DNA of 64,000 nt from a virus (taxonomy: Duplodnaviria > Caudoviricetes): positions 25,712 through 89,711 of IMG/VR virus record IMGVR_UViG_3300020048_000076. One strand, written 5' to 3'. This document shows, in pieces, positions 15,929-49,149 of this stretch. Made by a program: the position numbers and the translations under genes. Each line of letters opens with the position of its first letter. Within the stretch, counting starts at the first letter, position 1. A model generated the notes under the pieces. It saw nothing but the letters and a program-made list of their open reading frames with translations, searched no databases and was not told the DNA's origin.

Positions 15929-18900
15929 ATGCCATCCAGCTCTCTTAATTTAGACGAAATTCTAGCAAACGCTTCTTCTACTAATACCTCTAAAGGAGCC
16001 CCTAAATCATCAGAACTGGACAAAATATTAGCTCCTTATGCAACTAAAACGCCAGAGCAAGTAGAACCAGAAACAGAACAAGGTAACATAGGTACTGACG
16101 TATTAAAATCAGTAGTTAGAGGTGCAGCGGGTATACCCGAAGCTTTAGCCGAACCTGTTCAAACCGTAGCCGGCGGTGCCGGTAAGCTGCTTGATATCGC
16201 AGCTGGAGAACAAGCTGAAGTAGGGCCAGCAGAAGCAGGTGTAGCCGAATACGGCGGCCTGATGCGTGAAGCCACTACTCGAAAATTAAAGAAAGCAGCC
16301 GCAGAAGCACTACCTTATTCAACCGCTACCCAAGCTTCACAAGAAGAGTTCGGTAAACAATTAGCCGATATCCAAGCTAACAAAGAAATGGGCTTGCCTG
16401 AGCGTGTTTATGAATCAGGTAAAGCGGCTATTACCCACCCAAGAGCGGCTATCCCATCAATCGGTGAAAGCGGAACACAGTTCTTAGCTGGCGGAGCAGC
16501 GGGTAAAGCATTAGGATTAGGCGCCAGCGCCTTTAAACAAGCCGTTGGTATTAACGCCTTGTTGGAAGGGGGTGGCGGTAGTGAAGGTGCAAGAGAAGAA
16601 ATCGCTAACACACCGGTAGAAGAATTACGTAAAGCGCCACGCTTTCAAGAATTAGAAACCCAATACGGTACTGATAAAGCGTTAAAGATTGCCCAAGAAT
16701 TAGCAGGTTCAGCTGCATTTACACCCTCTGCTATCGGCGGCGGTGCGGCTACTGCACTTACAGGCGGTGGTGCCGGCGGACGTTTATTAGAAAGTGCTTT
16801 TGGTACTGGCGCTAGAGAAACGATACAACCGGGTCTTAAAGGCATAGCTAGGTACGCGGCTAAAGAAGTACCTAAGTACATGGCCAAAGAAATACCTGAA
16901 GAAACGATTCAAGGTGTTACCGGACAATTAGGACAAAACATTGCGGCTCAACCTTATACTGGCGTACCTTTAACTGAAGGTTTGGTAGAACAAGGCGTAG
17001 CCAGTGGTCTACAAGGTGCAATCGGCGGTGGTGTTTACGGTGGTGCTGGTGTAGGTACAGATATAGCAAGAACATCTTTAGAACGTAGACGTGATGCAGC
17101 AGGAGCGATTGATGAAGGAAACCTTGACACTACAGGCACTGGAACAGCTTTACTTGGCGCAGACGGAAGCGTTATCCCAGCTGGTACTACGGGTGCAGGA
17201 ACTGGAGGAGCAGGTGGCGGTCAAGCACAAGGTGACGTTGACCGTACTGGAGCAGCACAAGCAGGTGCTGGAACAACAGCGGCTCAAGGTGCAGCTCCAA
17301 CAAGGACTGAGCAGGTAACATCCGATTTAATTAATACTTTAACAACAGCAATAACCACTAACCCAACTACTGGCGTTACATCTAAAGCCGCTTTGGCCGG
17401 TGTTACTTCAGGTGTAGCAGCACCTATAATAGACGCGGCAACTCAAGATACACAAGAAGCTCAAGCCGCTTTAGAAGCGCAACAAGATCAAGATGCTCAA
17501 GATGCGCAAGCTCTATCTACGCAACGCGATGTAGATATTCCAGCAGAAATATTTACAGGGTCTACAATAGATGGTAAGAAACCTGAAAAAGTTGCTTTTA
17601 TTGATGATACATTAAACCAATACGATTTTGCTATTAGTGATTTATTAGATCAAAAAAGACAAGCTGTAGAAAACGGAACGACACCACCTGTCGCTAACTT
17701 AGGAAGATTAAGAACGATAGCAAAAGATTTAGGTGCGCCGTATTTAAAATCCAGTGAAGGCGATTTAATACACAATATTACACTTCGATTATCACAACTT
17801 AGAACGATACAACAAGAAACAACAGAAAATGGCCTTAAAGAAACAACTACACCAACTACAGCAGCACAACCAACAACACCAGGAGCAGGTACTACTGAAC
17901 AGGCACCTCCTCCAATGGGCGAAGCCCAAGGTGAAACCGTCACTCCTCCAACGGGTACGGAAGCTACTACAGGATTAACATTTAATGACCAAGGCGAAGA
18001 CACAACCCAGATCGATAAAGAAGGGCAAGAAGACCAAGGGCAAGAAGAGCAAAAAGTAGCGCCTGTAGAACAGCATTTAGTCAATAACGTAAAAGTTAAT
18101 CTTAATAGCTTAACACCGACGCAACGAACTGAATGGGATGCGGCTAACGAAAACTATAACCTTGAAATAGGATATGCAAATAGTATTAGTGACTCTCAAG
18201 AACGAGGTAAACGTTTAAATGCGGCTGGCCAAAAGCTATCTGCTGAGAGAAGACGTATTACCGGACTTTATACGGATAAAGAACGTGTAAAAAATGTTGC
18301 TTTTGCTAATAAAATTAGAGAGGGTGCGCCTTTACAAACTAAAGATGGTGAGCAAGTTACGGCTGTATCTACACCTTCCTATGGAAAAGTAAAAGTAAGA
18401 TCAGCTTCTGGCGTAGAGAGTTCTATCCCAACTAGCGATCTTAAAGTAACCCCCGTTCAATTGCCAAGAGCAGAAACAATAACCCTACCTGATGGAACTT
18501 TAGAATTTGTTGGCTATAAAACAGAAGAAAAAGCGCCAGAAGCAAAACAAGCACCTGTATCAGCAGCAGCTGATCAACAACAAGCCCCCAGCGAAGCCGC
18601 TATTGAAGCAAAAGAAGCTTACCCTTTAACCGGTGCTGATTTCCAAGGTATTCATGTCGCTATTGAAAACCCAGCGGGAACTGTTCGCTCCGGTACAGAT
18701 GCCAACGGTGAAAAATGGGAAATACAATTAAAAGATAACTATGGAAGTATGCCTAATGTAAGGGGTGCGGATAAAGATCATCTTGATGTATTTACACCTG
18801 TTGGGCTTACCAAAGAACAAGAAGATAAAACTAAATACGCTTACGTAGTTGATCAGTATGTAGTTGATGATAACGGTAAACAGACAAATCAATTTGATGA

Positions 18901-21900
18901 GCATAAGGTTATGCTCGGTTACCCTAGTCTAGCTGCGGCTAAAGAAGCATACTTAAGAAATTACAATCCCGGTTGGAGTGGCTTTGGCGCTATTACCGCT
19001 ATGTCAATGGCCGATCTAAAAGCTAAGACTAATGAAGTTTGGGATAAACCAATAAAGCCTAAAAAGGTAAGAAAAGCAAAAGCCGCTTTTTACACAGCAC
19101 CATCTGGATTAGAAGAGCTTCAAGGCGCTATTAAAAAATTAGGCGGCATTAGAGATGCTAACGGACCTAAATCGGCTTTTTCTGATTATAGGGGAAGGCG
19201 TTATCAAGCCATTTTTAATAACGGTACTAATGCGTTAACCATGGATGACATGGCAACTTCTTTAAATCAATACGGCTATGATATAGACGGTGAAAATGGT
19301 TTATCAGAATTGCTATATGACTCATTAAGAGGAAATGAATACTACACGCCAGCTGGCCATGAAAATCTATTGGCTATTCAAGAAAAAGAAAATTTCAATG
19401 ATGAGCAAGCAAGACAATTACAAAAATATGAAGATGCTGTAGAAGAAGGGCTTATAGATAGCACAGATTTTGACGATGCTATTGGATATTTAGAAGACGA
19501 TTTTAACTTCGGTGACATAGTAACCGGAGAAGACCTTAATGACTTTTGGGGATTTAACGATGAATATGACGAGAGAACAGATGTTGGCGGTTTTGAAGGC
19601 GGCGAAGAGGCGGCAGGAGGAGAAACAGAAGAAGTAACACCTTATACACCGGGTGCGCCTTTATTAAAGACCTATACCCAAGAAGAAATACTCGATCAGC
19701 AAAATGAAGCTAAACGATTAGCAGCTGAAAAAGCGGCTGCTGATTTAGCTGCGGAGCAAAAAGCCCAAGCAGATAGAGAAGTTGATACGTTTCAAGACTG
19801 GATGTTAGGACTTGGCGGTACAGCAACTACTGATATGTTTGCCGAAGAAGGCATTAAGAACTTAGGCGGAGCTGAACCCGTACAGAAAACAGAAACTAAC
19901 GGCATAAAACAGCCTGAATTAAATAGTGATGACCTAGCAAAACACATAGCGGATGCAGCAAGGGATAAAGGCTATAGCTGGAGTAAGAATAAAGACGGAA
20001 CGTTTGATATAAAATCAAACGGTGTCCACATTGCTACAGCTGCATATCAACCTGATTCTGCTGAAGAACTAACGGCCTTAGTATTAAAAAACTATAAGAC
20101 CGCATTAGATCGTGAAGGTAAGGAATTACCTAGCAACCCAAAAGAAATGACTCGTGATCAATTTTATATTGCTAGTAGATTCGGAAAAATAATTAACGAT
20201 TTTGAAATTAGCGGGGATGACATAGCCAACAAGACTGGCGGCATAACGACTAATGAATATGGCGGGTTTGCGATTGATCACGATGCGCTATATGACCGAT
20301 TACAGAAAACAGACCTTGCACCTAGAATTTCTAAAGCGCAATTAGCAGATAGACTATTCAGTGCGGTTATGTTCTATTTGAAAAACCATCCATCCAGCGA
20401 TGGCAAACCATATAGAGCTTTAGCAAAAGCCGCTAAAACCAATCAAAAAGCAGCTGAAATATTCAGTTTTGTAAAAAGCGTAAATGCTAATTTTATTAAG
20501 CTAGATAAAGCGGATTGGCAAACAGCGGATGCAGAATTAACTAAACAGTTAGAGTCTTTACCGGAAGAGCTGTCTAAAGAATACGAACGTATATTAGGTG
20601 CGGGTCTTAATGCTGTTGATTTTGAACAGTCTATTAAAGACATGCAAGAAAATCTAACCCCAGCTGAAATAAAGGCGCTTGCTACTGAAACTAAAGCTGA
20701 TATAGAAGGGGAAGAAGCCACTAAAAAAATAGAGCAGTATAAACCTCAGTTTAGTAGGCAAGAACAACGTATTTTAGGTAAGTCAAGAAAAGGATTATCA
20801 AATAAAGAAGTTTTAGATCGTATTCCTGAATTAGCAGAACACGCTAAAAAAATGCGTGAAGCAGATTATATTACGGACGAAATGCGAGTAGAGCATCAAA
20901 GACTGGTTGATTTATATAAACCAGTTGAACCGTATGAATCAGTGCCAGAACCAGTGCCTGAAAAACAAGCAAGATTTGCTTTAGCAAATGGTAAAGGGCA
21001 AAGTGAGAAGAAAGCGGATAAGTATGGTTTACCAGCTGCATTCTTTAAACTAGGTGACTGGGTACAATTTAGATTAGATATACCTTCGTATTCTCAAAAC
21101 AATACTTGGATAAATTCTATACACACTCCAAAATCAATGACGGGTACTGATGCTTCATTTAAAGCAGGTCCTGTTGTTGGGTATGAATCTGCTAGTGCCG
21201 CCACCAATGTAAAATTTGGTGTAGGCCAAGATGACTCTTTAGATATTGCAACAGGTAAAAATAAAGGGACTATTGCCACAATACTTGGCCAATGGAAACC
21301 AATGTCTAATGAAGAGATGTACGAACGAGCCCAAGCTATTGTAAATCAAACTGCTCCAGATTATGCACAATGGACTCAAGTTGGTATGGATCCGGAACGA
21401 CATAGTTATTTTTATGACAGGGTTAACCAAGATGTCGTAGATAGCGCCGATGAAGTTATACAAATAGGACCGTTAGTTTTAGCTAAGAATGTGGTTTTTG
21501 GTGAAAAGAACCTTCCAAACCGCTATAGTAGACTAGAAGCGAAAAACGTAAATACGTTTGCCAATGCCCAAGAAGCTGAAAATGAATTAATTGATCAGTT
21601 TGGTCCTGGCATTGCCAACCTTATTAATACTAAAGTCCTTAACCTTACCCAAGGCCGTGACTCTTGGCCAGAATCGGCTAGAAAAGCAGCTGAAGGTTTC
21701 TTTACTGAAGCGGTTTACCTTAACGGTAAGGTCTATATCGATTTGCAGTCTACTGCTAGATATAGAATGAAGGCTGTTATCTTACATGAATTAGGTGAGC
21801 ATTTTAATCTTGAGCGGATGCTTGGCTTAAAAGGCTACGCTGATTTACAAAACCAAATTCGTAATCAATCAAGAGTAGAAGGTTCTGAAACGCAACGTGT

Positions 21901-24900
21901 TTGGAATCAAGTTAAAAATCTTTATCCTGATATAGATGAAGGCAGTAAGGAGTTCATTTCTGAGGTGATTGCTAAGTTAGGAGAGAATAACCCTAACCTA
22001 CCTTGGTATCGTCGCCTGATCGCTAAAATTAAAGCCTTCCTAATGGAACGTGGCCTAGCTAGAGGTTTTATAACCGGAACGCTAACTGATTCAGATATGC
22101 ACGAATTGCTAGTAGCTAGTTTGAAAAGTGCCATCCACGGTAGAACGTTAAATAAAGCATGGGCGTTTGGTGGAACTCCAGCTATGGCTTCTTCACAAGG
22201 CATACAAAAAGGAAAACTCTTAGCGCCTAACGGTAAACCTTCAAACCTTAATGCTGTGCAACATGCGCAAGTAAGAACACCTGAGTTCATAAAATGGTTC
22301 GGACCGTGGGAAAACGATCCTGAAAACGCATCTAAAGTTGTCGATGAGAATGGGGAACCACTTGTTGTTTATCACACTAGACAAAAAGGAAATGATTTTA
22401 CTAAATTTAGAAGCGGAACAGCAGGGCTTATATGGTTCGCTGATTCAAAAGCTGGGTCGATAATGGCTGCTATGGGAGAAGGTGACACAATAGAGGTTTA
22501 TTTGAACGCAAGATCACCCTTTAACACTAAAGAAACAGCCGTTCATTTTGGAGACATACCCTATACTAAATATAATGAAAAGTTAAACAGAGTTACCAGC
22601 GTTCTTGAACGTACTGGTGATGATCTTATTTATGTAGAAGATGAGTCTGGAATTGCTTTTGCAGTTCAAAACCCCAATCAAATAAAATCAGCTACCGATA
22701 ATGTCGGTGCATTCTCCAAAAAGAACGATGATATTCGTTACAGCCGTCCGGCTCCTGCCGCCGGTACTGAAGGATCAGCACAATACCAACAGCAGTACAG
22801 AGAATGGTCAGCTATTATCTCAGAAGGGTTTGATAAGCTATCTAGCCAAGTAGCTTCAGTTAAATTAGCTTTTTTATCAGTACAACAAATTGTTGAAAAC
22901 TGTAAAAAATACCTACCTGCTGCTTATAGTTATGAGAAGTACCGTAGGTTAAGAGATGGTTTACAAACGCAATGGGTATTGGCAGGTGATAAAGTCAGTG
23001 CTTTAACCCATAACATATTGACCAAAGCGCAACATGGTGAACTAACCGGCGTAGTTCAAGACTCTACTATTATTAATGTAGATGCTTCTAAAGCTTGGAC
23101 TGGCGTTAAGAAAATGCCGGCTACCGACATAGAAAGCGAACGGTATCTTGCTTTCACTCAAGCTAAATTTAATAGCAAATACACTGATGAAATTATTGAT
23201 TTTGCTAATCAGCTTAATGAGCAACACGCAATCAATAAGGTAAACCCATTAACCTTTTTTAATGGTAACGCCGCTTTTAACACTTTAGAAGATGCTCAAA
23301 CTTTTGAGCAATTTTTAAAAGCACAGGAATTAAGATATGCGGCCTTTACAGAAGCGCGTTATAAAAACCCAAATACTGATAGAAAAGCTAAACATCCTGC
23401 TTTAGTAGCTCGATATAACGTTATGCCACAAGCGTCTAAAGACTTCTATGTACAGTCTAATGAGCTGTTAAATAAGTTAGCTGATGCCAAACAAGATACA
23501 TTAGAAGAGCATGTAAGAGAAGCTATCCTAGACGGCAATCGTAGAATTGAAATGAACAAACTGCTTAGATTGCATTACGAAGCTAACCGATTATCACAAT
23601 ACTACGCGCCTTTATCTCGTTACGGTAAGTTCTGGTTCTATGGAAACTTTACAGACGGCACTAAAACCTTTCGTAATTTTGAAACTCAAAAAGCGCGTGA
23701 TAAAGCTTTGGAAGAATTTAAGAATTTAAACGGTGAAGACTCTATTATTGCAGACGGTAAATCTTTCAACAGTGCTTTGAGAATAGAAGGCGGATCAGAT
23801 AGCTTTATTTTACAAATTAACACATTGATATCCGGCGCTGGCCTTGATGAAGATATATCTGAAAAACTAAGAGATGATATCTATCAAATGTACCTGTCTA
23901 CACTGCCTGAAGTTTCTTTACGTCATAGTGCTCAACATCGTAAAGGCACTAAAGGTTATGAAGAAGATGCAGAACGCAACTTTGCTAATCACATGACCCA
24001 TGGTGCATCTCAGTTCAGTAACATGAAGTGGGGTAAGAAAATGGAGCAAACTATTAAGCAATTGCGCGATATTATCACCATGTCTACCGCACCTTATCGT
24101 CAACAAGATGGTTTACGTAAAATAGAAGCGGCCAGATTACTTTTAGGCAACTGGGAAGAACTCTCTGAACCCGGTGTACTAGAAGCGCAAATAGAAGCTG
24201 CTGAAAGTACACCTGAAGTTATTTTACTAAGGGAAGTTCGTAAAATACGTAATAAGTACAGAAGCCTAGATGCTTTAAATGATGCCATTGAAAGCGGTAG
24301 ATCGCTTTATGACGATGTAAGCGATGAAGCTTTCCAAGTGCTGTCTGATGATTGGGATAATTTAATAACCAGAGGCATGGTTGATCCACTTGAAGATAAA
24401 ATTAAACGGGCTAAGTTAACCGATAAAGCTAAGTTACTAAGAGCGGCTAAGGATTTGCGTAACTCTTTTGGCAAAATGGATGTGGATGATGCAACAGAAG
24501 CTTTAGATTTAGTTATTGAAAAAACTCAAGATATTTATGACGGATCAAAATTATTAAACACTTCTGAAAAACGTGTAAAAGCGGTTGATACTGTGGATGA
24601 GTTAGAGATGACTTTTAACGCCATGGTTAATTCAGCAACCACCGCTATGGATCAAGCAGCAGGTAGTATTAGACAATTTGGTTTCTTATGGAACTTAGGT
24701 GCCAGCATATCAAGTACCATTATGAACTTATTCCAAACACCCGGTGCGGCAATGCCGGTAGCCATTGGAAAGCATGAGTTCAACAACGTATTAAAAGAGT
24801 TTAACCATGCTTACAATGAGTTTATAGCGTCTGTAAAAAGCGGTAAATACGATGAAAACGGTAATGCGTCTATATCCGCCATTATGCAAGAACGCCTGAA

Positions 24901-26329
24901 TAGAATGACTGAATTTTCACCTGAATATATGGAGTTGAAAGGTGAGCTAGATGCACTTAACCTATTCAAACAGGATGGTACTGTTGCCAGAACACAAACC
25001 ATGGATATCATGGGCATTGGTAAAGAAGGTTATCAACATGGCGGTAAGTTAGGTGAGTTCTCTAAGAAAATGGGCTGGATGTTCCATCATGCTGAACGCT
25101 TAAACCGTGAAGTAACACTGGTAGCTGCTTATCGATTAGCAAGAGCTGAAGCCCTTAAAAAAGGCATCAAGATGGGTATAAACAGAAATGAAGATGTTGG
25201 CGAATGGGCGGATGCTGTTGAATACGCACGTTACGTTAATGATCGTTCACAACTGAATTACTCACCGGATAACGCCGCTAGAATATTTAGAGGCTGGCCA
25301 GCGGCTATTGCTTTACAGTTTAAGAAATATCAACAAGGTATGTTGTATCTTTGGGGACGTACACTGGCCGATAAATTAAACGGCTGGAAAAAGATGCCTG
25401 ACGGAACTCAAGAAGAAAAAGATGCTAAAGCAGCCGCTAAACTAGAGTCTCAACAAGCAGGAAGAACGTTTGTAGCGTTATTAACCATGCAAATGTCTTT
25501 TGCCGGTGCATTAGGACTGCCTTTAGTGGGTGCATTAACCGTTGTTGTTAATATGATCGGTGATGCTATATCTGATGCCGATGAGCCATGGGATTGGAGA
25601 AGGGAGGTTCGAGTAGGGCTAACTGATCTAACCGGTGAGTTCTTTGCTACAGCGGCTACTAAGGGGTTATTTAACGCTTTCTCTACTATTGGCATTCCAC
25701 TAGGTGATATAGCCGGTCGTATGTCTCTAGCCGATACTATATTTAGAGAACCTATGCAGAACATGGAAGGTAGAGATGAAGTTACTCAATACCTATCATC
25801 TATAGCTGGCCCATTCGGAGGTCTGGTTGGTAATGTATGGGAAGGTGTACGCTTGGCCGGAGAAGGTAATTATGCCAGAGGTGCTGAAACCGCTTCACCA
25901 AAAGTTATTAAAGATATCATTAAATCTACCCGATTTATGTCTGAAGGGGCTAGTTCAATAGATGGCGCTCAGTTAAAAGAGATGTCCTTCATGGAAATAT
26001 TTGAGCAAATGGCCGGTTTCGGAAGTGCTGAACTGGAACAGAAATATGCTGAACGTGGCTACTATAAAGAAGCTGAGAAAAGTATATTAAGTAAACGTCA
26101 AAAAATACTCCATGCAGCGGCCAAAGCTAGACGAGAAGGTGATACGTCTAAACAAGAAGAAGTGGCAGCTTGGAATGAGCGCCATCCGCTTAAACCTATT
26201 ACTAATCAAAACATTAGTGCTTCTATTAACGCTACTAAACTGGGTGAAAAGAAACGAGGGGTTAGGGGTTATACCACTGATCCAGATTTAGAATTAGCAT
26301 TTGATTTGCAAGATTATGATGAGGAATAA
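15929..26329 (+). CDS. giant polyvalent internal virion protein (InPase-like, zincin MPTase-like, ART-PolyVal-like, PLxRFG-type C-terminus)
   Basis: GIHVAIENPAGTVRSG...YG...GADKDHLDVF (~18640-19040); VILHELGEH (~21775); LLAPNGKPSNL...TPEFIKWFG...GEPLVVYH...QIKSAT (~22216-22745); YAPLSRYGK (~23610). Confidence 0.8.
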   Translation: MPSSSLNLDEILANASSTNTSKGAPKSSELDKILAPYATKTPEQVEPETEQGNIGTDVLKSVVRGAAGIPEALAEPVQTVAGGAGKLLDIAAGEQAEVGPAEAGVAEYGGLMREATTRKLKKAAAEALPYSTATQASQEEFGKQLADIQANKEMGLPERVYESGKAAITHPRAAIPSIGESGTQFLAGGAAGKALGLGASAFKQAVGINALLEGGGGSEGAREEIANTPVEELRKAPRFQELETQYGTDKALKIAQELAGSAAFTPSAIGGGAATALTGGGAGGRLLESAFGTGARETIQPGLKGIARYAAKEVPKYMAKEIPEETIQGVTGQLGQNIAAQPYTGVPLTEGLVEQGVASGLQGAIGGGVYGGAGVGTDIARTSLERRRDAAGAIDEGNLDTTGTGTALLGADGSVIPAGTTGAGTGGAGGGQAQGDVDRTGAAQAGAGTTAAQGAAPTRTEQVTSDLINTLTTAITTNPTTGVTSKAALAGVTSGVAAPIIDAATQDTQEAQAALEAQQDQDAQDAQALSTQRDVDIPAEIFTGSTIDGKKPEKVAFIDDTLNQYDFAISDLLDQKRQAVENGTTPPVANLGRLRTIAKDLGAPYLKSSEGDLIHNITLRLSQLRTIQQETTENGLKETTTPTTAAQPTTPGAGTTEQAPPPMGEAQGETVTPPTGTEATTGLTFNDQGEDTTQIDKEGQEDQGQEEQKVAPVEQHLVNNVKVNLNSLTPTQRTEWDAANENYNLEIGYANSISDSQERGKRLNAAGQKLSAERRRITGLYTDKERVKNVAFANKIREGAPLQTKDGEQVTAVSTPSYGKVKVRSASGVESSIPTSDLKVTPVQLPRAETITLPDGTLEFVGYKTEEKAPEAKQAPVSAAADQQQAPSEAAIEAKEAYPLTGADFQGIHVAIENPAGTVRSGTDANGEKWEIQLKDNYGSMPNVRGADKDHLDVFTPVGLTKEQEDKTKYAYVVDQYVVDDNGKQTNQFDEHKVMLGYPSLAAAKEAYLRNYNPGWSGFGAITAMSMADLKAKTNEVWDKPIKPKKVRKAKAAFYTAPSGLEELQGAIKKLGGIRDANGPKSAFSDYRGRRYQAIFNNGTNALTMDDMATSLNQYGYDIDGENGLSELLYDSLRGNEYYTPAGHENLLAIQEKENFNDEQARQLQKYEDAVEEGLIDSTDFDDAIGYLEDDFNFGDIVTGEDLNDFWGFNDEYDERTDVGGFEGGEEAAGGETEEVTPYTPGAPLLKTYTQEEILDQQNEAKRLAAEKAAADLAAEQKAQADREVDTFQDWMLGLGGTATTDMFAEEGIKNLGGAEPVQKTETNGIKQPELNSDDLAKHIADAARDKGYSWSKNKDGTFDIKSNGVHIATAAYQPDSAEELTALVLKNYKTALDREGKELPSNPKEMTRDQFYIASRFGKIINDFEISGDDIANKTGGITTNEYGGFAIDHDALYDRLQKTDLAPRISKAQLADRLFSAVMFYLKNHPSSDGKPYRALAKAAKTNQKAAEIFSFVKSVNANFIKLDKADWQTADAELTKQLESLPEELSKEYERILGAGLNAVDFEQSIKDMQENLTPAEIKALATETKADIEGEEATKKIEQYKPQFSRQEQRILGKSRKGLSNKEVLDRIPELAEHAKKMREADYITDEMRVEHQRLVDLYKPVEPYESVPEPVPEKQARFALANGKGQSEKKADKYGLPAAFFKLGDWVQFRLDIPSYSQNNTWINSIHTPKSMTGTDASFKAGPVVGYESASAATNVKFGVGQDDSLDIATGKNKGTIATILGQWKPMSNEEMYERAQAIVNQTAPDYAQWTQVGMDPERHSYFYDRVNQDVVDSADEVIQIGPLVLAKNVVFGEKNLPNRYSRLEAKNVNTFANAQEAENELIDQFGPGIANLINTKVLNLTQGRDSWPESARKAAEGFFTEAVYLNGKVYIDLQSTARYRMKAVILHELGEHFNLERMLGLKGYADLQNQIRNQSRVEGSETQRVWNQVKNLYPDIDEGSKEFISEVIAKLGENNPNLPWYRRLIAKIKAFLMERGLARGFITGTLTDSDMHELLVASLKSAIHGRTLNKAWAFGGTPAMASSQGIQKGKLLAPNGKPSNLNAVQHAQVRTPEFIKWFGPWENDPENASKVVDENGEPLVVYHTRQKGNDFTKFRSGTAGLIWFADSKAGSIMAAMGEGDTIEVYLNARSPFNTKETAVHFGDIPYTKYNEKLNRVTSVLERTGDDLIYVEDESGIAFAVQNPNQIKSATDNVGAFSKKNDDIRYSRPAPAAGTEGSAQYQQQYREWSAIISEGFDKLSSQVASVKLAFLSVQQIVENCKKYLPAAYSYEKYRRLRDGLQTQWVLAGDKVSALTHNILTKAQHGELTGVVQDSTIINVDASKAWTGVKKMPATDIESERYLAFTQAKFNSKYTDEIIDFANQLNEQHAINKVNPLTFFNGNAAFNTLEDAQTFEQFLKAQELRYAAFTEARYKNPNTDRKAKHPALVARYNVMPQASKDFYVQSNELLNKLADAKQDTLEEHVREAILDGNRRIEMNKLLRLHYEANRLSQYYAPLSRYGKFWFYGNFTDGTKTFRNFETQKARDKALEEFKNLNGEDSIIADGKSFNSALRIEGGSDSFILQINTLISGAGLDEDISEKLRDDIYQMYLSTLPEVSLRHSAQHRKGTKGYEEDAERNFANHMTHGASQFSNMKWGKKMEQTIKQLRDIITMSTAPYRQQDGLRKIEAARLLLGNWEELSEPGVLEAQIEAAESTPEVILLREVRKIRNKYRSLDALNDAIESGRSLYDDVSDEAFQVLSDDWDNLITRGMVDPLEDKIKRAKLTDKAKLLRAAKDLRNSFGKMDVDDATEALDLVIEKTQDIYDGSKLLNTSEKRVKAVDTVDELEMTFNAMVNSATTAMDQAAGSIRQFGFLWNLGASISSTIMNLFQTPGAAMPVAIGKHEFNNVLKEFNHAYNEFIASVKSGKYDENGNASISAIMQERLNRMTEFSPEYMELKGELDALNLFKQDGTVARTQTMDIMGIGKEGYQHGGKLGEFSKKMGWMFHHAERLNREVTLVAAYRLARAEALKKGIKMGINRNEDVGEWADAVEYARYVNDRSQLNYSPDNAARIFRGWPAAIALQFKKYQQGMLYLWGRTLADKLNGWKKMPDGTQEEKDAKAAAKLESQQAGRTFVALLTMQMSFAGALGLPLVGALTVVVNMIGDAISDADEPWDWRREVRVGLTDLTGEFFATAATKGLFNAFSTIGIPLGDIAGRMSLADTIFREPMQNMEGRDEVTQYLSSIAGPFGGLVGNVWEGVRLAGEGNYARGAETASPKVIKDIIKSTRFMSEGASSIDGAQLKEMSFMEIFEQMAGFGSAELEQKYAERGYYKEAEKSILSKRQKILHAAAKARREGDTSKQEEVAAWNERHPLKPITNQNISASINATKLGEKKRGVRGYTTDPDLELAFDLQDYDEE

Positions 26330-40912: not shown

Positions 40913-41152
40913 ATGAGCATTAAGGGTATTATAATTGAGAAATTTGCTAAGTGGTATGTCGGCGGAGTAGCATTTGAGAGTATGAAAAGAATAGTATCAA
41001 GTTTAATGGATAGTGATCTTACTAATAAGCAGAAAAAAGCTAAAGCATTAAGTGAAATTGCTGAAATGGGCTATGCTTTAGGCGACTTTCTACTTGATAC
41101 GGGTATACAATTAGCACTTGGCTATTTGAAATCACAACCTAAATCTAAATAG
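40913..41152 (+). CDS. hypothetical protein, last gene of + strand late arm
   Basis: GAGGA RBS, 79 aa. Confidence 0.65.
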   Translation: MSIKGIIIEKFAKWYVGGVAFESMKRIVSSLMDSDLTNKQKKAKALSEIAEMGYALGDFLLDTGIQLALGYLKSQPKSK

Positions 41153-41153
41153 T

Positions 41154-41483
41154 TTATTGTTCTCTGCAATAACCACAATGGCCGTTCTCATCAATCGGAC
41201 CGCCATGCTCGCCAAATAAACCGCAGTTAGGGCAATCCCTCATGTTATCAACAGCGTGAGGTATTCCTGCTTCTAATTTTGATTGAACAGCATCCCCATA
41301 AAGATATTCCAGATTATGTCTTAACCGTTTAACGGTCATATCTATCCAAGCAGTATCTAACAGTGCTTTCATAGTTCCCCAACCTACTTTACGGGCTTCT
41401 TTTGAAGAAGGTGCAAAGATCAATATAGCGCCTTCTGTTGAACCCGCTTTACTATCAAAACCCATGTAGATATGTAGCGTCAT
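41154..41483 (-). CDS. hypothetical protein with C-terminal Zn-finger (CPNC...CGYC)
   Basis: AGGA RBS; two CxxC pairs. Confidence 0.7.
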   Translation of the reverse strand: MTLHIYMGFDSKAGSTEGAILIFAPSSKEARKVGWGTMKALLDTAWIDMTVKRLRHNLEYLYGDAVQSKLEAGIPHAVDNMRDCPNCGLFGEHGGPIDENGHCGYCREQ

Positions 41484-41513
41484 GTGTAATCCTATTGAAG
41501 TGAATTTGTTTGT

Positions 41514-41842
41514 ACTTAGATAAATAGACTCGGTTTACTAAGTCACATAGCTCCTTTTCCGCTATGCGCACCGGTTAAAAACTCAAAAAGTAATTACTCT
41601 TTTCTTCTTTTTAACACTCACCGTCAATACGCCCCGTGGCCTTTGGTCATCGTATATGTTTTGGTGTCAATATTACCCCCTAAAGGGAATGAGCCGAGCC
41701 TATTTATATAAGTCCTGACACTTACCCGGTCAGGTTAGGTATAACAGGTTTTTGTAGGCATTACTCTAAGTGCCAACTTAGTAAATCAAAACTGCACCTG
41801 ACTTTTTATAGAGGCAAGTGGACCTCTTACTACAAAAACCTG
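41514..41842 (-). ncRNA. candidate multi-domain structured RNA or long leader
   Basis: 13-bp perfect stem 41745-57/41830-42 closing three hairpins; 6-bp hairpin 41714-34; 22-bp imperfect stem 41514-35/41692-713 closing four hairpins; several G-U pairs only possible on the minus strand. Confidence 0.6.
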
Positions 41843-41846
41843 ATAA

Positions 41847-41876
41847 ATTTTACCGTAGCATTTGCTACAGTGTCAA
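41847..41876 (-). promoter_or_regulatory. sigma70-type promoter with palindromic operator
   Basis: TTGACA-18 nt-TAAAAT; spacer contains GTAGC-N4-GCTAC (41855-41868). Confidence 0.65.
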
Positions 41877-42044
41877 TGTTTTTTCTAGTGCTTTTGCCCT
41901 TTCAATATAACTATTAGCTAATTGAATTTCTTCTCGCATAACAATGTAACAATCAGCGTCACTTGCATTATCATAAAGATCACGGGCTAATTCCCGTAAC
42001 TGTTCTATTTTAAGCTCAGTTGCTTTTTGATACTCATCAACCAT
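41865..42044 (-). CDS. hypothetical 59-aa protein
   Basis: MVDEYQKATELKIEQ...KTLTL; TAATG-coupled to upstream gene; not in the ORF track. Confidence 0.55.
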   Translation of the reverse strand: MVDEYQKATELKIEQLRELARDLYDNASDADCYIVMREEIQLANSYIERAKALEKTLTL

Positions 42045-42424
42045 TAGCGTCTTCCGTGTATTTGAACGTGTAGGTATGCCATGGCTGCATACGCAATAGC
42101 ACCTAAAAGCTCCCTTTCAAAGTCAGCTTGGTTTTCTTTACCGCAAGATTCACCGGCTTTTTTCATCGCTTGGAATATCAAACCATTCTCTCCGGTTTGA
42201 CGAGAGATTGAATACCAGGGTTGGTCAAAGAATGGCGTTATATCACCGCCATGTCTAGCACCTTTACCTCTGGTAACTTGCGATATAACTGCATCAAACA
42301 CTTCTTGAAGCGGGTGTATTTCTTCATCAAACACTTCTTGAAGTGGGTGGGCTTCTTCAATTCTATTTTTTTTTATATTTTTTATTATGTTTTCGTTCAT
42401 ACCATCGTCGTCATAAATACTCAT
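42044..42424 (-). CDS. conserved phage protein (GKGxxRH...QAMKK...ELLGAIxY), possibly all-alpha NTP-PPase-like
   Basis: Motif pattern; internal 33-bp tandem duplication at 42292-42357 (HPLQEVFD twice). Confidence 0.55.
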   Translation of the reverse strand: MSIYDDDGMNENIIKNIKKNRIEEAHPLQEVFDEEIHPLQEVFDAVISQVTRGKGARHGGDITPFFDQPWYSISRQTGENGLIFQAMKKAGESCGKENQADFERELLGAIAYAAMAYLHVQIHGRR

Positions 42425-43257
42425 TCTTTATCTTCCTGTATTAAATTAATAAAAGTTTTAGTGGCAAAACCGCTGGCGTTTTTATGGCCACCGCCACCGT
42501 AGTGTTTTGCTATGGGCGTAACGTCGTAATCGCCTACTGAGCGAAGTGAAAACTGCCATTCCTCCCTATAGCCGTCATAAGAATAAATAACGGCGTAGGT
42601 ATCTGATTCTTTAGCTAATCGATTGCCTAACTCAGAAGCATATTTAGAAGGTGCATTACAAGCGATACCTTCTATCCCAGCTAAAGTAACCTTATGTTTT
42701 CTTTGAGCTAGAAAAGATATATCTTTGTCTTCTAATTTAAGTAAATCTCTACCGCGTAATACTAATTTATTGCTTTCATTCTGATCAGCAAATACGTTAT
42801 CCCACGCTTCAAAAGAAGGTTCTACAAAAGCTCTTATCGCGGCAGTAAACTCTTTTGTATAAGGCATTTCAAAACGCCATAAATCCCTATCCTGAATCAG
42901 CTTTAACCCCCATGGGATCGCTAAAGCAGGATGGAAATGTTCCCATGCCATAACACATCCGGAACGGTTCATATCAAATACAGCAAAAGATAAACCGTCT
43001 AAATCTTCCTTAGCAGTCATATGATGATCCAATACCAACAAAGATTTAGCTTCTTTGTGCATAGCTAACAGTACATCTCTTTTGTAACTAAAATCTAAGA
43101 TGTAAACTTCTTTACCGGTAACTTTAGGAGGGGGTTGTCCATAATGAGCTTCAATATATTCAGCTTTGTTGCCAAACTTAAACCATGCGGCGTAAGCAGC
43201 ACCAAAACCGTCTGTACAGTTACCATGATAAATAACGACTACTGGTTTAATACCCAT
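42421..43257 (-). CDS. DHH/DHHA1 family phosphoesterase
   Basis: YHGNCTDG, ILDFS, LDHH, QDRDLW, GGGGHKNASG motifs. Confidence 0.85.
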   Translation of the reverse strand: MGIKPVVVIYHGNCTDGFGAAYAAWFKFGNKAEYIEAHYGQPPPKVTGKEVYILDFSYKRDVLLAMHKEAKSLLVLDHHMTAKEDLDGLSFAVFDMNRSGCVMAWEHFHPALAIPWGLKLIQDRDLWRFEMPYTKEFTAAIRAFVEPSFEAWDNVFADQNESNKLVLRGRDLLKLEDKDISFLAQRKHKVTLAGIEGIACNAPSKYASELGNRLAKESDTYAVIYSYDGYREEWQFSLRSVGDYDVTPIAKHYGGGGHKNASGFATKTFINLIQEDKE

Positions 43258-45878: not shown

Positions 45879-46651
45879 ACGCTAAACCCCTAGCGTTTTG
45901 AATATTGATGCTGAACTTCATCAGTTCGGTTACCCTATCCATAAAGATATCTTCCTGATCTTCGCTAATATCTAATTTATATTGCTTAGATTTACTTTGT
46001 AAAAAGTCTATATCTGTTTGGATAGTATTGCTCATAGCTAATTCTCATAGTAGTTGGAAGGGTCTTTTACTCTGGCTATAGTAAGCATTTCTTCCACTAC
46101 TTGCACGAAATCTTCATCGTTTAAATCTTTAAATTCAGAAACGGTATCTGAAGGTATCTGGTATCTTTTCAATTTACCTTTGTGTTCTTTAGACGAAATG
46201 AAATGTCTAAGGTTTTCCACATAACCTTTTGCATAAAGCTTACAGCTTCCTGCTTCTTTAATTAACCACATCAAAGTATCCCTAAATATTGTAAAGCGCC
46301 ATTACCAACGATTAATATCAATGTTAATATCGCTAAAGTTGATTGGTGATCAGCACGTTTATACGCTTTTATTAGTATTTTCATTTCTTGATCAGCGCAT
46401 TCTAATTGTTTTTCTAAGGTTCTAGCATAAGCAATGTTGCTATCAAATGTTTTTGCATTCAAAATAATCAAAGCAGATAGCCTCTCTATTTCTCCTTTAT
46501 AAATATCACAAGCTTTATCAAAATCTTCATCTAAAGCTTTCAGATGATCTTCAACATCGTAAGCTTTCATTACATAGCCGGCATCATTAGGTTCTAAAGA
46601 ATCGATTCCGATATTACTTTTTATAAAATAGCGTTGGAGAGGCGTATTCAT
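45835..46651 (-). CDS. three hypothetical genes (45835..46035, 46038..46274, 46271..46651)
   Basis: Tightly packed co-oriented ORFs; the last is coiled-coil plus TM. Confidence 0.55.
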
Positions 46652-46655
46652 AGTC

Positions 46656-46931
46656 TTAATTCAAAGCGTCTTTAAGGGTTTTTGATAGTCTAAAAGCAAC
46701 TGTTTTTGAAGCAGCAATTTCTAATGCTTCACCGGTAGCTGGATTACGACCTGTTCTAGCAGAACGTTCTTTCGGAACTAATCGGCCAATACCTTGAATT
46801 TCAACAAAGTCACCGGCAACTAATGTATCGGTAATTACATCTGCAAAAATACTTAAAAAAGTAGTTACTTCAATTTGTGAAAATAAACTTTCTTTAGCTT
46901 GGATAGCTTTAATCAATTCTTTTTTAGTCAT
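46656..46931 (-). CDS. hup: HU/IHF-family histone-like DNA-binding protein
   Basis: MTKKELI...VEIQGIG...ERSARTGRNPATGE...I.A.K.VAF motif. Confidence 0.92.
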   Translation of the reverse strand: MTKKELIKAIQAKESLFSQIEVTTFLSIFADVITDTLVAGDFVEIQGIGRLVPKERSARTGRNPATGEALEIAASKTVAFRLSKTLKDALN

Positions 46932-46963: not shown

Positions 46964-46994
46964 AGTGTAGCACTAGCTACGGGGTAGGTGTCAA
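46964..46994 (-). promoter_or_regulatory. internal promoter for the HU gene with palindromic operator
   Basis: TTGACA-19 nt-TACACT with extended -10 TGc; GTAGC-N4-GCTAC at 46967-46980. Confidence 0.6.
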
Positions 46995-46995
46995 G

Positions 46996-49149
46996 TTAAT
47001 CTTTTCTGTATTGATAGCTTTCAAAGCCAGCAGCGGCTAGGGGAATGTCTCCTGCCCACTCTGGTACGATCGCCATTATCTTTTCTAGCTCTTTTGAAGT
47101 ATACTGATCAGTATCAGGCACTTCGGTTACTAACTCATCGTGTACCGCCAATACAACTTTATAACCGGCGGCTTCAGCTTTTAACTGGCCGTGTTTAAAG
47201 ATATCTCTAGCAAAAGATTGACTAATGTTCTCACACAATTTTCCAGAGTAAGTTTTAGTCTGTTCCCATTTCTTAGTAAATTGGCCAACACCCTTAAATA
47301 CCAGCTGGCCGTCATCTAAGGTTTTCATACCGGGATAGCATATGTTATGGCCACCGGGTAATATGATCCTTACCCAGCTTCCTGATTTCCTTGCTATACA
47401 ACCATTGCCAAAAGGATGATCCGTATTAGGTAGTCTTACTGCACTACGCACTGCAACCTCTGTATCTGCCCAGAATTGAACGATAGCTGGGTTGGACAAG
47501 CGCCATAAGCGTTTTAAACTCTCCAGCGCAACAAACACTTCTTCTGATAAAAACAGCGTTCGTTTAGCGGTGTAATAAGCTTCCCAATTAGCACCGTCTT
47601 TAGCTTTCTCAGCTTTTACTTTAGCCGCTTTTATATCAAAGCTATCCTGCCATTTATAAAAACCTTTCGCTTCTTTTAAAACATCCTCTGGTACAACCGG
47701 CATTACGTTTTCAACAAGATCGTTAAGATCAACGTTGTAAGCCGTCATAAAAGCTAATAGCCCACCGCAACCGGAAGAGTATCCTAATGCCAACTCAAGA
47801 ATCTTACCTAAGAAACGCTGCTCTTTAGTCACGTCTTTAGGGTCTATACCGAACGCTTTGGCATAAGCCATCTTATAAAGATCATGGCCGGTGCCGGCAT
47901 CAAACGCTCTAAAGGCATCTAACTTCCATTCTTCATTAGCCAACCAAGCCAATACTCTATTTTCAATACCGGCTAAATCCGATATGGCCAACTTGCTACC
48001 GGCTGGAGCACAAATGGTATAGCGCAGAGCAGAGCTGGTTAATTTCATAACATCAAAACCGGCTATTTCTGCGTAATCACCTTTTATTGCGTCGATACCT
48101 TTTAGTATCAAATCGTGCTCAAGTACCGGTCTTGCAAGGTTTTGCGGCTGGATCATGCGCCCTCCGTCTCTGGAAGTGCGTGAAGCACCACAATACTGAA
48201 GTGTACCGCGCACTCGACTATCAGCACTGGTCACATCAACTATCTTTTTGTACTTGGCAGTAGAAGTTGTACTGGAACTTAACCTAACTGATAATAACTC
48301 TTTCAAAGCTGGCGGTGTGTTAACGTCTTCAACTAAACGTTCTATCGCTGCTTTTTGCATATTAGGAAGGTCATACCCATAGATAATAGCAATGTGCTTA
48401 ATCATGGCATCCCGTTGGCCAGCTGTATCAACATCGCCATTGGTCATGCGTTTAGTCGCTTTAGCTAAATCCTGTTGAGCAGAATCGATAGCATCCATAG
48501 CTTTATTAGCCAGCTCTAAATCCATGTACATACCTCTGGAATTTATCTTCTGGTCAAGTAGCCACAAATCCAATTCATTAGCTTGCTTTGGGTAATTCCA
48601 CTTAGGCGTCTTCTTAATACATTCCCGCATAGCGATAACATCGTTTCCGCTGTACTCAAGATACTTAGCCCAGTCTTCCGGATCAGTTTTTGGTGTAGCC
48701 CATTTAAATGAACCATCGCTTTGCTTTTTAGGTTTGCAAAACTTCATGACTAGACGTTTACCGTCTTTAATTTTTCTAAAGTCCTCTTTTAATCCTAAGA
48801 CTGTACCCAGTGCTTCTAAGCTGGCGGGTAAGCCATGGGATAAAGCAGCGGCCATGGAACAGCGATACCGACTAAGGGGTAATTTAACCTTCAATACGTT
48901 TTCTATCAGGTTTCTATCAAACCATGAATTGTGATACCAAAATATGACATCAGGATTAGCGAAGGCGGCTTTTAAATCATCAGGCATAGGATAGCCTTCC
49001 TCTTTACTCCAAAGCTTTACCTCGCCATCCTCAAACGCATAGCGGAAAATCTGAATATCAGTGGTCGGATGCTCTGCATATACTGCTGTGCCGTGTTTCT
49101 TCAAATCACATTCAGATTTCGTTTCTAAATCCGCGTAGCAATTAATCAT
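46996..49149 (-). CDS. polA: DNA polymerase family A (APSE/Bcep-like) with 3'-5' exonuclease
   Basis: DLET, HNSWFD, DVxAM exonuclease motifs; SDLAGIENR, R...KILELALGY, VHDE polymerase motifs. Confidence 0.92.
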   Translation of the reverse strand: MINCYADLETKSECDLKKHGTAVYAEHPTTDIQIFRYAFEDGEVKLWSKEEGYPMPDDLKAAFANPDVIFWYHNSWFDRNLIENVLKVKLPLSRYRCSMAAALSHGLPASLEALGTVLGLKEDFRKIKDGKRLVMKFCKPKKQSDGSFKWATPKTDPEDWAKYLEYSGNDVIAMRECIKKTPKWNYPKQANELDLWLLDQKINSRGMYMDLELANKAMDAIDSAQQDLAKATKRMTNGDVDTAGQRDAMIKHIAIIYGYDLPNMQKAAIERLVEDVNTPPALKELLSVRLSSSTTSTAKYKKIVDVTSADSRVRGTLQYCGASRTSRDGGRMIQPQNLARPVLEHDLILKGIDAIKGDYAEIAGFDVMKLTSSALRYTICAPAGSKLAISDLAGIENRVLAWLANEEWKLDAFRAFDAGTGHDLYKMAYAKAFGIDPKDVTKEQRFLGKILELALGYSSGCGGLLAFMTAYNVDLNDLVENVMPVVPEDVLKEAKGFYKWQDSFDIKAAKVKAEKAKDGANWEAYYTAKRTLFLSEEVFVALESLKRLWRLSNPAIVQFWADTEVAVRSAVRLPNTDHPFGNGCIARKSGSWVRIILPGGHNICYPGMKTLDDGQLVFKGVGQFTKKWEQTKTYSGKLCENISQSFARDIFKHGQLKAEAAGYKVVLAVHDELVTEVPDTDQYTSKELEKIMAIVPEWAGDIPLAAAGFESYQYRKD

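Follow-up and report, generated by a model that had tools for sequence, protein, structure and literature searches.

A modular structured RNA behind a conserved promoter in an uncultured phage, and a hairpin module shared with other phages

Phage T4 encodes RNA C and RNA D (species 1 and 2), structured RNAs other than tRNAs that are part of the phage tRNA transcription unit and whose function is unknown. The GOLLD and ROOL RNAs are often located near tRNAs and in prophages (PMC5737381), and leaders of the gp32 and gp20 types have been predicted in phages (PMC10690425). Here, a non-coding region is described in a 64,000-nucleotide (nt) stretch of caudovirus DNA (the window in the following), which comprises bases 25712-89711 of the 89.7-kb IMG/VR virus record IMGVR_UViG_3300020048_000076, a record bearing direct terminal repeats. 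The region is a 381-nt gap between an open reading frame (ORF) of 59 amino acids (aa) and a 109-aa zinc-ribbon ORF. Its minus strand carries an element of ~330 nt that is modular in build, whose RNA structure is under selection, and whose 5' stem adjoins a conserved promoter. One part of it, a short hairpin named P4 that is followed by a long helix, recurs as a module in other phages. On balance, and with modest confidence, the region is read as a divergent member of an uncatalogued phage stable-RNA module, as a stable, probably processed non-coding RNA rather than a regulator specific to one gene.

Structure, covariation and promoter of the RNA

From 5' to 3', the RNA consists of domain D1, a 10-nt linker, the P4 hairpin, domain D2 and ~30 unstructured nt that lead to the start codon of the zinc-ribbon gene (coordinates in Table 1). 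The arms of D2 are a hairpin, a CACC/GGUG helix with an inner helix, a nested pair of helices and a second hairpin with the loop GGAAAAGGA; the centre of the domain (~41675-41610) is almost invariant among relatives. The minimum free energy (MFE) fold of the minus strand reaches -105.5 kcal/mol, compared with -81.1 ± 5.4 kcal/mol in dinucleotide-shuffled sequences (z = -4.5), none of which, out of 100, folds as well. For the plus strand, too, the fold is more stable than that of shuffles (z = -3.5). A preliminary description, made from the letters of the window, had proposed a cloverleaf of three hairpins on a perfect 13-bp stem, then a 6-bp hairpin and a second domain with four hairpins. All of these elements are reproduced in the MFE fold, the second domain being closed by a 19-bp stem with one mismatch.

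Relatives of the locus were sought by looking up exact protein matches to homologues of the zinc-ribbon protein and the 59-aa ORF. Eight syntenic metagenomic loci were recovered (L061-L063 and L066-L070). The intergenic regions are 88.5-96.6% identical and are thereby as conserved as the flanking genes (85-98%). An alignment of nine rows, eight of them distinct (A3), was folded with RNAalifold. The consensus structure comprises 94 pairs, and 97.8% of the cells hold standard pairs. Altered on both sides and still paired are 15 of the 94 pairs (35 cells), in direct counts over the alignment rows. None of 500 column shuffles reaches the observed values, and when the 3' partners are slid by 1-3 columns, 0-3 two-sided pairs and 34-44% paired cells are left. 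The two-sided changes affect four pairs of P1, the closing stem of D1, and five D2 helices (helices 6, 8, 10, 11 and 12). Pairing in P1 is kept in L069 and L070 although both partners are replaced at 4 of its 13 pairs. Comparison by hand shows the same for the P2 hairpin of D1, which is AGAGGU/GCCUCU in the window and UGGUGU/GCACCA in L069. P5, the basal helix of D2, is never altered on both sides and is invariant save for wobble transitions. A kissing contact between the P2 and P4 loops (CACUU with AAGUG) was considered and rejected, as no covariation is seen in L069.

Only a part of the proposed cloverleaf is conserved. The second and third hairpins of D1 are swapped for other hairpins in the L067/L068 and L069/L070 lineages, and D1 is therefore described as a closing stem, P2 and a variable region rather than as a fixed cloverleaf. 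The earlier observation that G-U pairs favour the minus strand, in contrast, is reinforced by the alignment. G-U or U-G combinations occupy 51 cells in 17 pairs of A3, A-C or C-A combinations 2 cells. From this excess it follows that the structure exists on the minus strand. The asymmetry agrees with an RNA transcribed from the promoter, whereas a signal in double-stranded DNA would hardly explain it.

The promoter, TTGACA-18-TAAAAT on the minus strand, is located where it had first been placed. It matches 11 of the 12 positions of the sigma-70-type consensus and is the only TTGACA-N16-19-TAWAAT site within the window. The -35 hexamer overlaps the final codons of the upstream 59-aa ORF. P1 begins 5-6 nt past the -10 hexamer, which agrees with the earlier claim that the perfect stem coincides with the expected start site; the 5' end of the transcript is predicted at ~41841. 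Six relatives keep the promoter, with TTGACA or TTGACC as -35 and TAAAAT, TAAACT or TACACT as -10 hexamer. The spacer contains the palindrome GTAGCAAATGCTAC. The underlying pattern GTAGC-N4-GCTAC occurs twice in the window (0.03 copies expected), the second copy being found just downstream of a minus-strand TTGACA and before an HU-like gene. In the relatives, the palindrome arms are conserved and only the central 4 nt vary. This suggests that the two palindromes are a candidate operator for a shared regulator, and the promoter is probably operator-controlled.

No catalogued family accounts for the RNA. Searches against Rfam (Rfam 15) gave no matches at gathering thresholds over the 64 kb and none at E ≤ 10 over 41100-42100, the tRNA model included. 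The unmatched families comprise C4 antisense RNA, GOLLD, ROOL, pRNA, 6S RNA, Y RNA, self-cleaving ribozymes and riboswitches. An identity as tRNA, already denied in the preliminary description, or as tmRNA was rejected: ARAGORN and the Rfam tRNA model are silent, and the closing stem of D1 has 13 bp, its inner hairpins being variable. The claim of an unrecognised phage non-coding RNA or leader behind its own promoter is supported by the covariation, by a conservation equal to that of the neighbouring genes and by the lack of a catalogued family.

Further searches were directed at copies and homologues of the RNA. Neither blastn with the RNA region nor tblastn with the zinc-ribbon protein gave a match in the collection of cultured phages (50,697 records), and scans of IMG/VR for close relatives with the zinc-ribbon protein, ORF126 and P0127 returned nothing. 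Exact-word scans for pieces of D1 and D2 in viral contigs gave no match. Those with 19-mers gave two matches in metagenomes, both by chance and in GC-rich coding DNA, and one chance match in a genome collection. A covariance model of D2 (R1) finds a single copy in the phage genome and none in ~80 other loci, which include P4-bearing loci and 59 SNF2-helicase loci; in the latter (≤49% identity), neither nhmmer nor covariance models match the RNA. A miniature inverted-repeat transposable element (MITE) or other dispersed repeat was rejected on the same model results, and no duplication is present at the D2 borders. An antisense RNA of the P1 C4 or P4 CI type, as had been suggested, finds no support, since neither the Rfam C4 model nor any other model matches and the phage genome holds no convincing antisense target. 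The best candidate is one 14-mer (0.2 expected), through which the 5' arm and loop of the D2 hairpin at 41572-41541 could pair without mismatch with the DNA polymerase mRNA (49036-49049); this segment of the RNA varies among relatives.

The P4 hairpin in other phages and their tRNA loci

P4 is present in all members of the clade and in a more distant relative, L075, whose zinc-ribbon protein is 54% identical. There, the zinc-ribbon gene is the second gene of an operon, after a Mu Gp12-like gene, in an SNF2-DHH module. The 745-nt gap upstream of this operon contains, in this order, a TTGACA-18-TAGAAT promoter, a tRNA-Met gene and a structured RNA. The context ACGGTA(A/G)AATTTA is common to this promoter and that of the window, and the -10 context ACGGTAGAATTTA in L075 nearly equals ACGGTAAAATTTA in the window. 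The tRNA-Met begins 12 nt past the promoter and is the sole Rfam match in the homologous region. Then come 354 nt of RNA with a strong predicted fold (z = -5.2), whose final element is a P4 copy. This copy has the same loop, CGGGUAAGU, and the same CCUAACC flank, and its stem is changed from CCUGAC/GUCAGG to CCCGGC/GCCGGG in a compensatory manner. A covariance model of D1 and P4 (R2) matches L075 with 28 bits (E = 3.6e-5), mostly from P4.

Directly after the tRNA-Met of L075, a 129-nt domain is found (L075 2150-2278) that is closed by a perfect 22-bp helix and belongs to no Rfam family. It was considered as a counterpart of D2, and homology is not demonstrated: the covariance score is 10.8 bits, alike on both strands, nhmmer gives E = 0.5, and the agreement with a part of D2 (20 of 26 nt, compared with L063) is not significant.

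A tRNA-Met within a long non-coding gap is also found in L072 and in L073, whose replication arms are related to that of the window more distantly. In L073, an 88-kb relative, positions 8762-8891 are matched end to end by the Rfam tRNA model over 130 nt, which indicates a tRNA-like gene with an insertion of ~55 nt; this gene shares its non-coding gap with a normal tRNA-Met (9354-9431). In the phage studied here, ARAGORN finds neither tRNA nor tmRNA genes, be it in the window or in the whole genome. Since the phage is without tRNA genes of its own, the RNA locus is most likely, as far as the sequences can tell, the counterpart of the tRNA-Met transcription unit of the related phages.

The distribution of P4 was determined by scanning IMG/VR with the pattern CCTAACCNNNNCGGGTAAGNGNNNGG, in which 18 bases are fixed and three stem pairs are free. 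The scan yielded 17 further viral loci with 19 sites; the site in L083 is probably a tRNA T-arm matched by chance. Across 21 aligned sites, 99.2% of the stem cells are paired. The three free pairs all covary (U-A/C-G; G-C/A-U; A-U/G-C/U-G), and 13 cells are changed on both sides, compared with 0-3 in slid controls. The gaps in which P4 is located measure 80-1400 nt and are poor in ORFs. Of 17 loci (L075 and the scan loci without L083), 6 have tRNA genes within 1.5 kb of P4, and all 9 tRNAs are encoded on the strand of P4.

A long helix typically follows. Of 20 sites, 15 have a helix of 14 bp or more that starts 0-8 nt past P4 and encloses a domain of 65-215 nt; the count is 13 of 18 when the clade of the window is set aside. 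At random positions in the same loci, 16 of 120 (13%) pass the same test. A looser cut-off of at least 8 bp, which 57% of random sites pass, was dropped. In many loci, the post-P4 helix opens with a conserved CCAAC...GUUGG. The module is defined as CCUAACC, a covarying 6-bp stem, the loop CGGGUAAGN and then, within a few nt, a helix of at least 14 bp that closes a domain of 65-215 nt. In the window, P4 is followed at once by P5 and D2, with 19 bp and a span of 200 nt. D2 thus has the same architecture as the post-P4 domains elsewhere and a different sequence. Neither the link to phage tRNA loci nor the wide spread of the 6-bp hairpin had been recognized in the preliminary description.

Two contigs carry two P4 hairpins each on the same strand, 400-510 nt apart, namely L084 (4225-4250 and 4736-4761) and L090 (8450-8475 and 8857-8882). 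The arrangement suggests tandem modules of P4 and domain. An int-alpA RNA (RF02996) is located ~1.3 kb from P4 in L090.

Genomic neighbourhood and competing explanations

In the window, the plus-strand virion genes stop at ~41152 and face a replication arm on the minus strand. This arm encodes an SNF2 helicase, a dCMP deaminase, a VRR-NUC nuclease, a DHH phosphoesterase and a DNA polymerase, and the zinc-ribbon ORF is its final gene. A 3466-aa ORF of the virion module (15929-26329) is similar in size to gp50, the virion RNA polymerase of phage N4. Named homologues of the DHH protein (42421-43257) at 52-53% identity include proteins encoded in assemblies of Methylomonas and Methylomicrobium, a weak hint that this phage group may infect methanotrophic Gammaproteobacteria.

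Table 1 Features of the structured RNA locus and adjacent genes in the window
Feature	Position	Strand	Description
59-aa ORF	41865-42044		upstream border of the 381-nt gap
sigma-70-type promoter	41847-41876	-	-35 TTGACA 41876-41871, 18-nt spacer, -10 TAAAAT 41852-41847
Palindrome	41855-41868		GTAGCAAATGCTAC in promoter spacer; candidate operator
Domain D1	41745-41842	-	98 nt; stem P1, hairpin P2, variable region of one or two hairpins
P1	41842-41830 with 41757-41745	-	perfect 13-bp stem, CAGGUUUUUGUAG with CUACAAAAACCUG
P2	41827-41822 with 41815-41810	-	hairpin in D1
P4 motif	41714-41739	-	CCUAA and 6-bp stem CCUGAC/GUCAGG (41734-41729 with 41719-41714; hairpin 41734-41714 in the MFE fold), 9-nt loop CGGGUAAGU
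Domain D2	41514-41713	-	200 nt; basal helix P5, multi-way junction, four arms
P5	41713-41694 with 41533-41514	-	19 bp and one mismatch
D2 hairpin	41572-41541	-	fourth arm, loop GGAAAAGGA
3' leader part	41484-41513	-	unstructured, A/C/U-rich; AGGA ribosome-binding site 41493-41490, 6 nt before start codon
Zinc-ribbon gene	41154-41483	-	109 aa; CxxC...CxxC; no terminator before gene
Second palindrome copy	46967-46980		downstream of minus-strand TTGACA
HU-like gene	46651-46930		follows second palindrome copy

A profile search places the zinc-ribbon protein in a family of 278 cluster representatives (E ≤ 0.001). Its members share four invariant cysteines (CxxC...CxxC) and an EGA-LIFAH-KEA motif (alignment A6). 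Pfam and PHROG assign no function to the protein. With 64 homologues, the AlphaFold model reaches a pLDDT of 93, compared with 46 for an earlier model; no Foldseek match at E ≤ 0.001 and no convincing PDB match were obtained (best VIA-align Z 4.5). In L076 (52% identity), the zinc-ribbon gene abuts the preceding gene in an SNF2-DHH module and is without a long leader. From these gene arrangements, the structured RNA is not tied to the zinc-ribbon gene. The suggestion of a joint RNA and protein anti-defence unit is weakened by the homologues at 52-54% identity that lack the RNA and by the occurrence of P4 beside tRNA genes in other phages. In L063, a frameshift removes the C-terminal zinc ribbon of the protein; the upstream RNA is intact.

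According to the favoured reading, the host sigma-70 RNA polymerase would transcribe the RNA gene from the minus strand, starting at the foot of the 13-bp stem. The transcript would pass D1, P4 and D2 and then enter the zinc-ribbon gene without a terminator. The RNA would act as a stable, probably processed, non-coding RNA. Its fully paired 5' end and long basal helices could protect it or allow its release by RNase III, and the invariant P4 loop and near-invariant D2 core may be sites for a conserved host or phage factor.

Several points weigh against this reading. The eight distinct sequences represent only ~4-5 lineages, and the number of independent compensatory events is therefore modest. 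D1 and D2 have no detectable homologue beyond the close clade. In L075, model R2 places D1 on a different, smaller hairpin; a D1 homologue was rejected there and only P4 is convincing. The link to other phages consequently rests on P4, the promoter and the shared architecture and not on shared sequence. In the scan set, the conservation of loop and flank is partly built in by the 18 fixed bases, and only about one third of the P4 sites have tRNAs inside 1.5 kb. Transcription and its start site, processing, stability, action in trans and a partner are inferred from sequence. Moreover, two features of the locus also fit a cis-acting leader. No terminator is present between the RNA and the zinc-ribbon gene, as had been noted before, and most of the ribosome-binding site lies in predicted pairs (P(unpaired) 0.08-0.32).

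Such a leader, i.e. a cis-regulatory 5' region of the zinc-ribbon gene of the riboswitch or protein-binding kind, is the foremost alternative and a possible one, if far from favoured. In this view, a ligand or protein would be bound by D2 and P4, and the access of ribosomes would be regulated through a pairing of the CCUA just 5' of P4 with the UAGG at the ribosome-binding site. The RNA is located directly upstream of the zinc-ribbon gene in 9 of 9 clade loci, and predictions for six homologues leave the ribosome-binding site largely paired. In L075, the first gene of the operon has P4 20 nt ahead of its ribosome-binding site, which is again predicted to pair with a CCU motif. Like aptamers, D2 has a near-invariant core, and a conserved core with covarying helices is compatible with an aptamer. 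However, the contact with the ribosome-binding site is a weak one of 4 bp and both partners are invariant. No terminator/antiterminator or other expression platform is seen, and at 360 nt the leader would be longer than the 330-nt gene it serves. The zinc-ribbon genes at 52-54% identity are without such a leader. In other phages, P4 and its long-helix domain occupy tRNA arrays or long stretches free of genes, and what follows downstream is often a tRNA and not a start codon. A stable non-coding RNA is considered more likely than a regulator specific to the zinc-ribbon gene.

The reading as a stable RNA can be extended, as a tentative proposal that we hold to be rather doubtful. P4 and its long-helix domain would form a new, widespread class of phage stable RNAs that travels with phage tRNA genes and acts in trans, and one conserved factor would recognize the invariant 9-nt loop and the CCUAA flank. 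An enzyme that processes or modifies tRNAs, or a defence nuclease of the host, could for example be this factor, and the variable long-helix domains (D2 in the window) may be exchangeable payloads or decoys. By analogy with phage tRNAs, which can do so, the RNA could possibly serve counter-defence in infection.

It is unlikely that the element is mainly a device for RNA processing and stability, with RNase III sites, a protected 5' end as at the T7 early-mRNA sites, and domains without a function of their own. The predicted P5 helix, with 19 bp and one mismatch, has the ~two turns (~20 bp) of mostly regular helix that characterize an RNase III site, and an RNase III substrate, also named in the preliminary description, is plausible for this modelled helix. 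The analogous helix of L075 has 22 perfect bp, and the predicted 5' end is buried in the 13-bp stem. Such a device would, however, need neither the 160-nt interior with five covarying helices and a near-invariant core of 65 nt nor a loop conserved across distant phages.

A DNA-level element (a replication origin, hairpins of single-stranded DNA or a MITE-like insertion with terminal inverted repeats) is very unlikely: it would suit the position at the end of the replication arm, the 20-nt inverted repeats that bound D2, the absence of D2 from the L075 leader and the stable plus-strand fold, but not the excess of G-U over A-C cells, the conserved promoter exactly at the 5' stem, a copy number unlike that of a mobile repeat, the lack of iterons and of an AT-rich unwinding element, or the constant location of P4 on the strand of neighbouring tRNA genes.

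Few phage structured RNAs combine strong comparative support with a clear genomic logic. With its defined promoter, covariation-backed structure and short conserved P4, the RNA is testable, and P4 ties it to unrelated uncultured phages and their tRNA loci. The hairpin is a compact 26-nt handle for the collection of the family, a bait for partners and a target for mutation; P4 mutants could test whether non-tRNA RNAs from tRNA loci are used in takeover or counter-defence. Were the RNA a leader of the zinc-ribbon gene after all, its size and modular build would be unusual, and it would serve a phage protein family without assigned function.

Comparison with known systems

RNA C and RNA D of phage T4 may resemble the RNA in their association with tRNA transcription. 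In L075, tRNA-Met stands behind the homologous promoter, and several phages have the P4 module among tRNA genes of the same strand. In contrast to T4, the phage studied here has no tRNA, and its RNA is larger (~330 nt) and runs into a protein gene; the systems are likened by description only.

GOLLD and ROOL (PMC5737381, PMC12286853) are likewise large multi-junction RNAs of phages and prophages that are often near tRNA genes and whose function is unknown. The present RNA differs in that no Rfam match is obtained at E ≤ 10, its size is at most about half of theirs, D1 is variable and D2 is clade-specific. Riboswitches and protein-binding leaders share with it a structured, conserved RNA between promoter and ribosome-binding site without an intervening terminator. 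Here, however, no recognizable expression platform is present, the module also occurs without a downstream coding gene, and homologues of the gene occur without the RNA. P1 C4 and P4 CI are similar as small structured phage RNAs from a longer transcript, but the present RNA is much larger, has no match to the Rfam C4 family, and the phage genome yields no conserved complementary target. The RNA is an uncatalogued family of a known kind, that of phage-encoded structured or stable RNAs.

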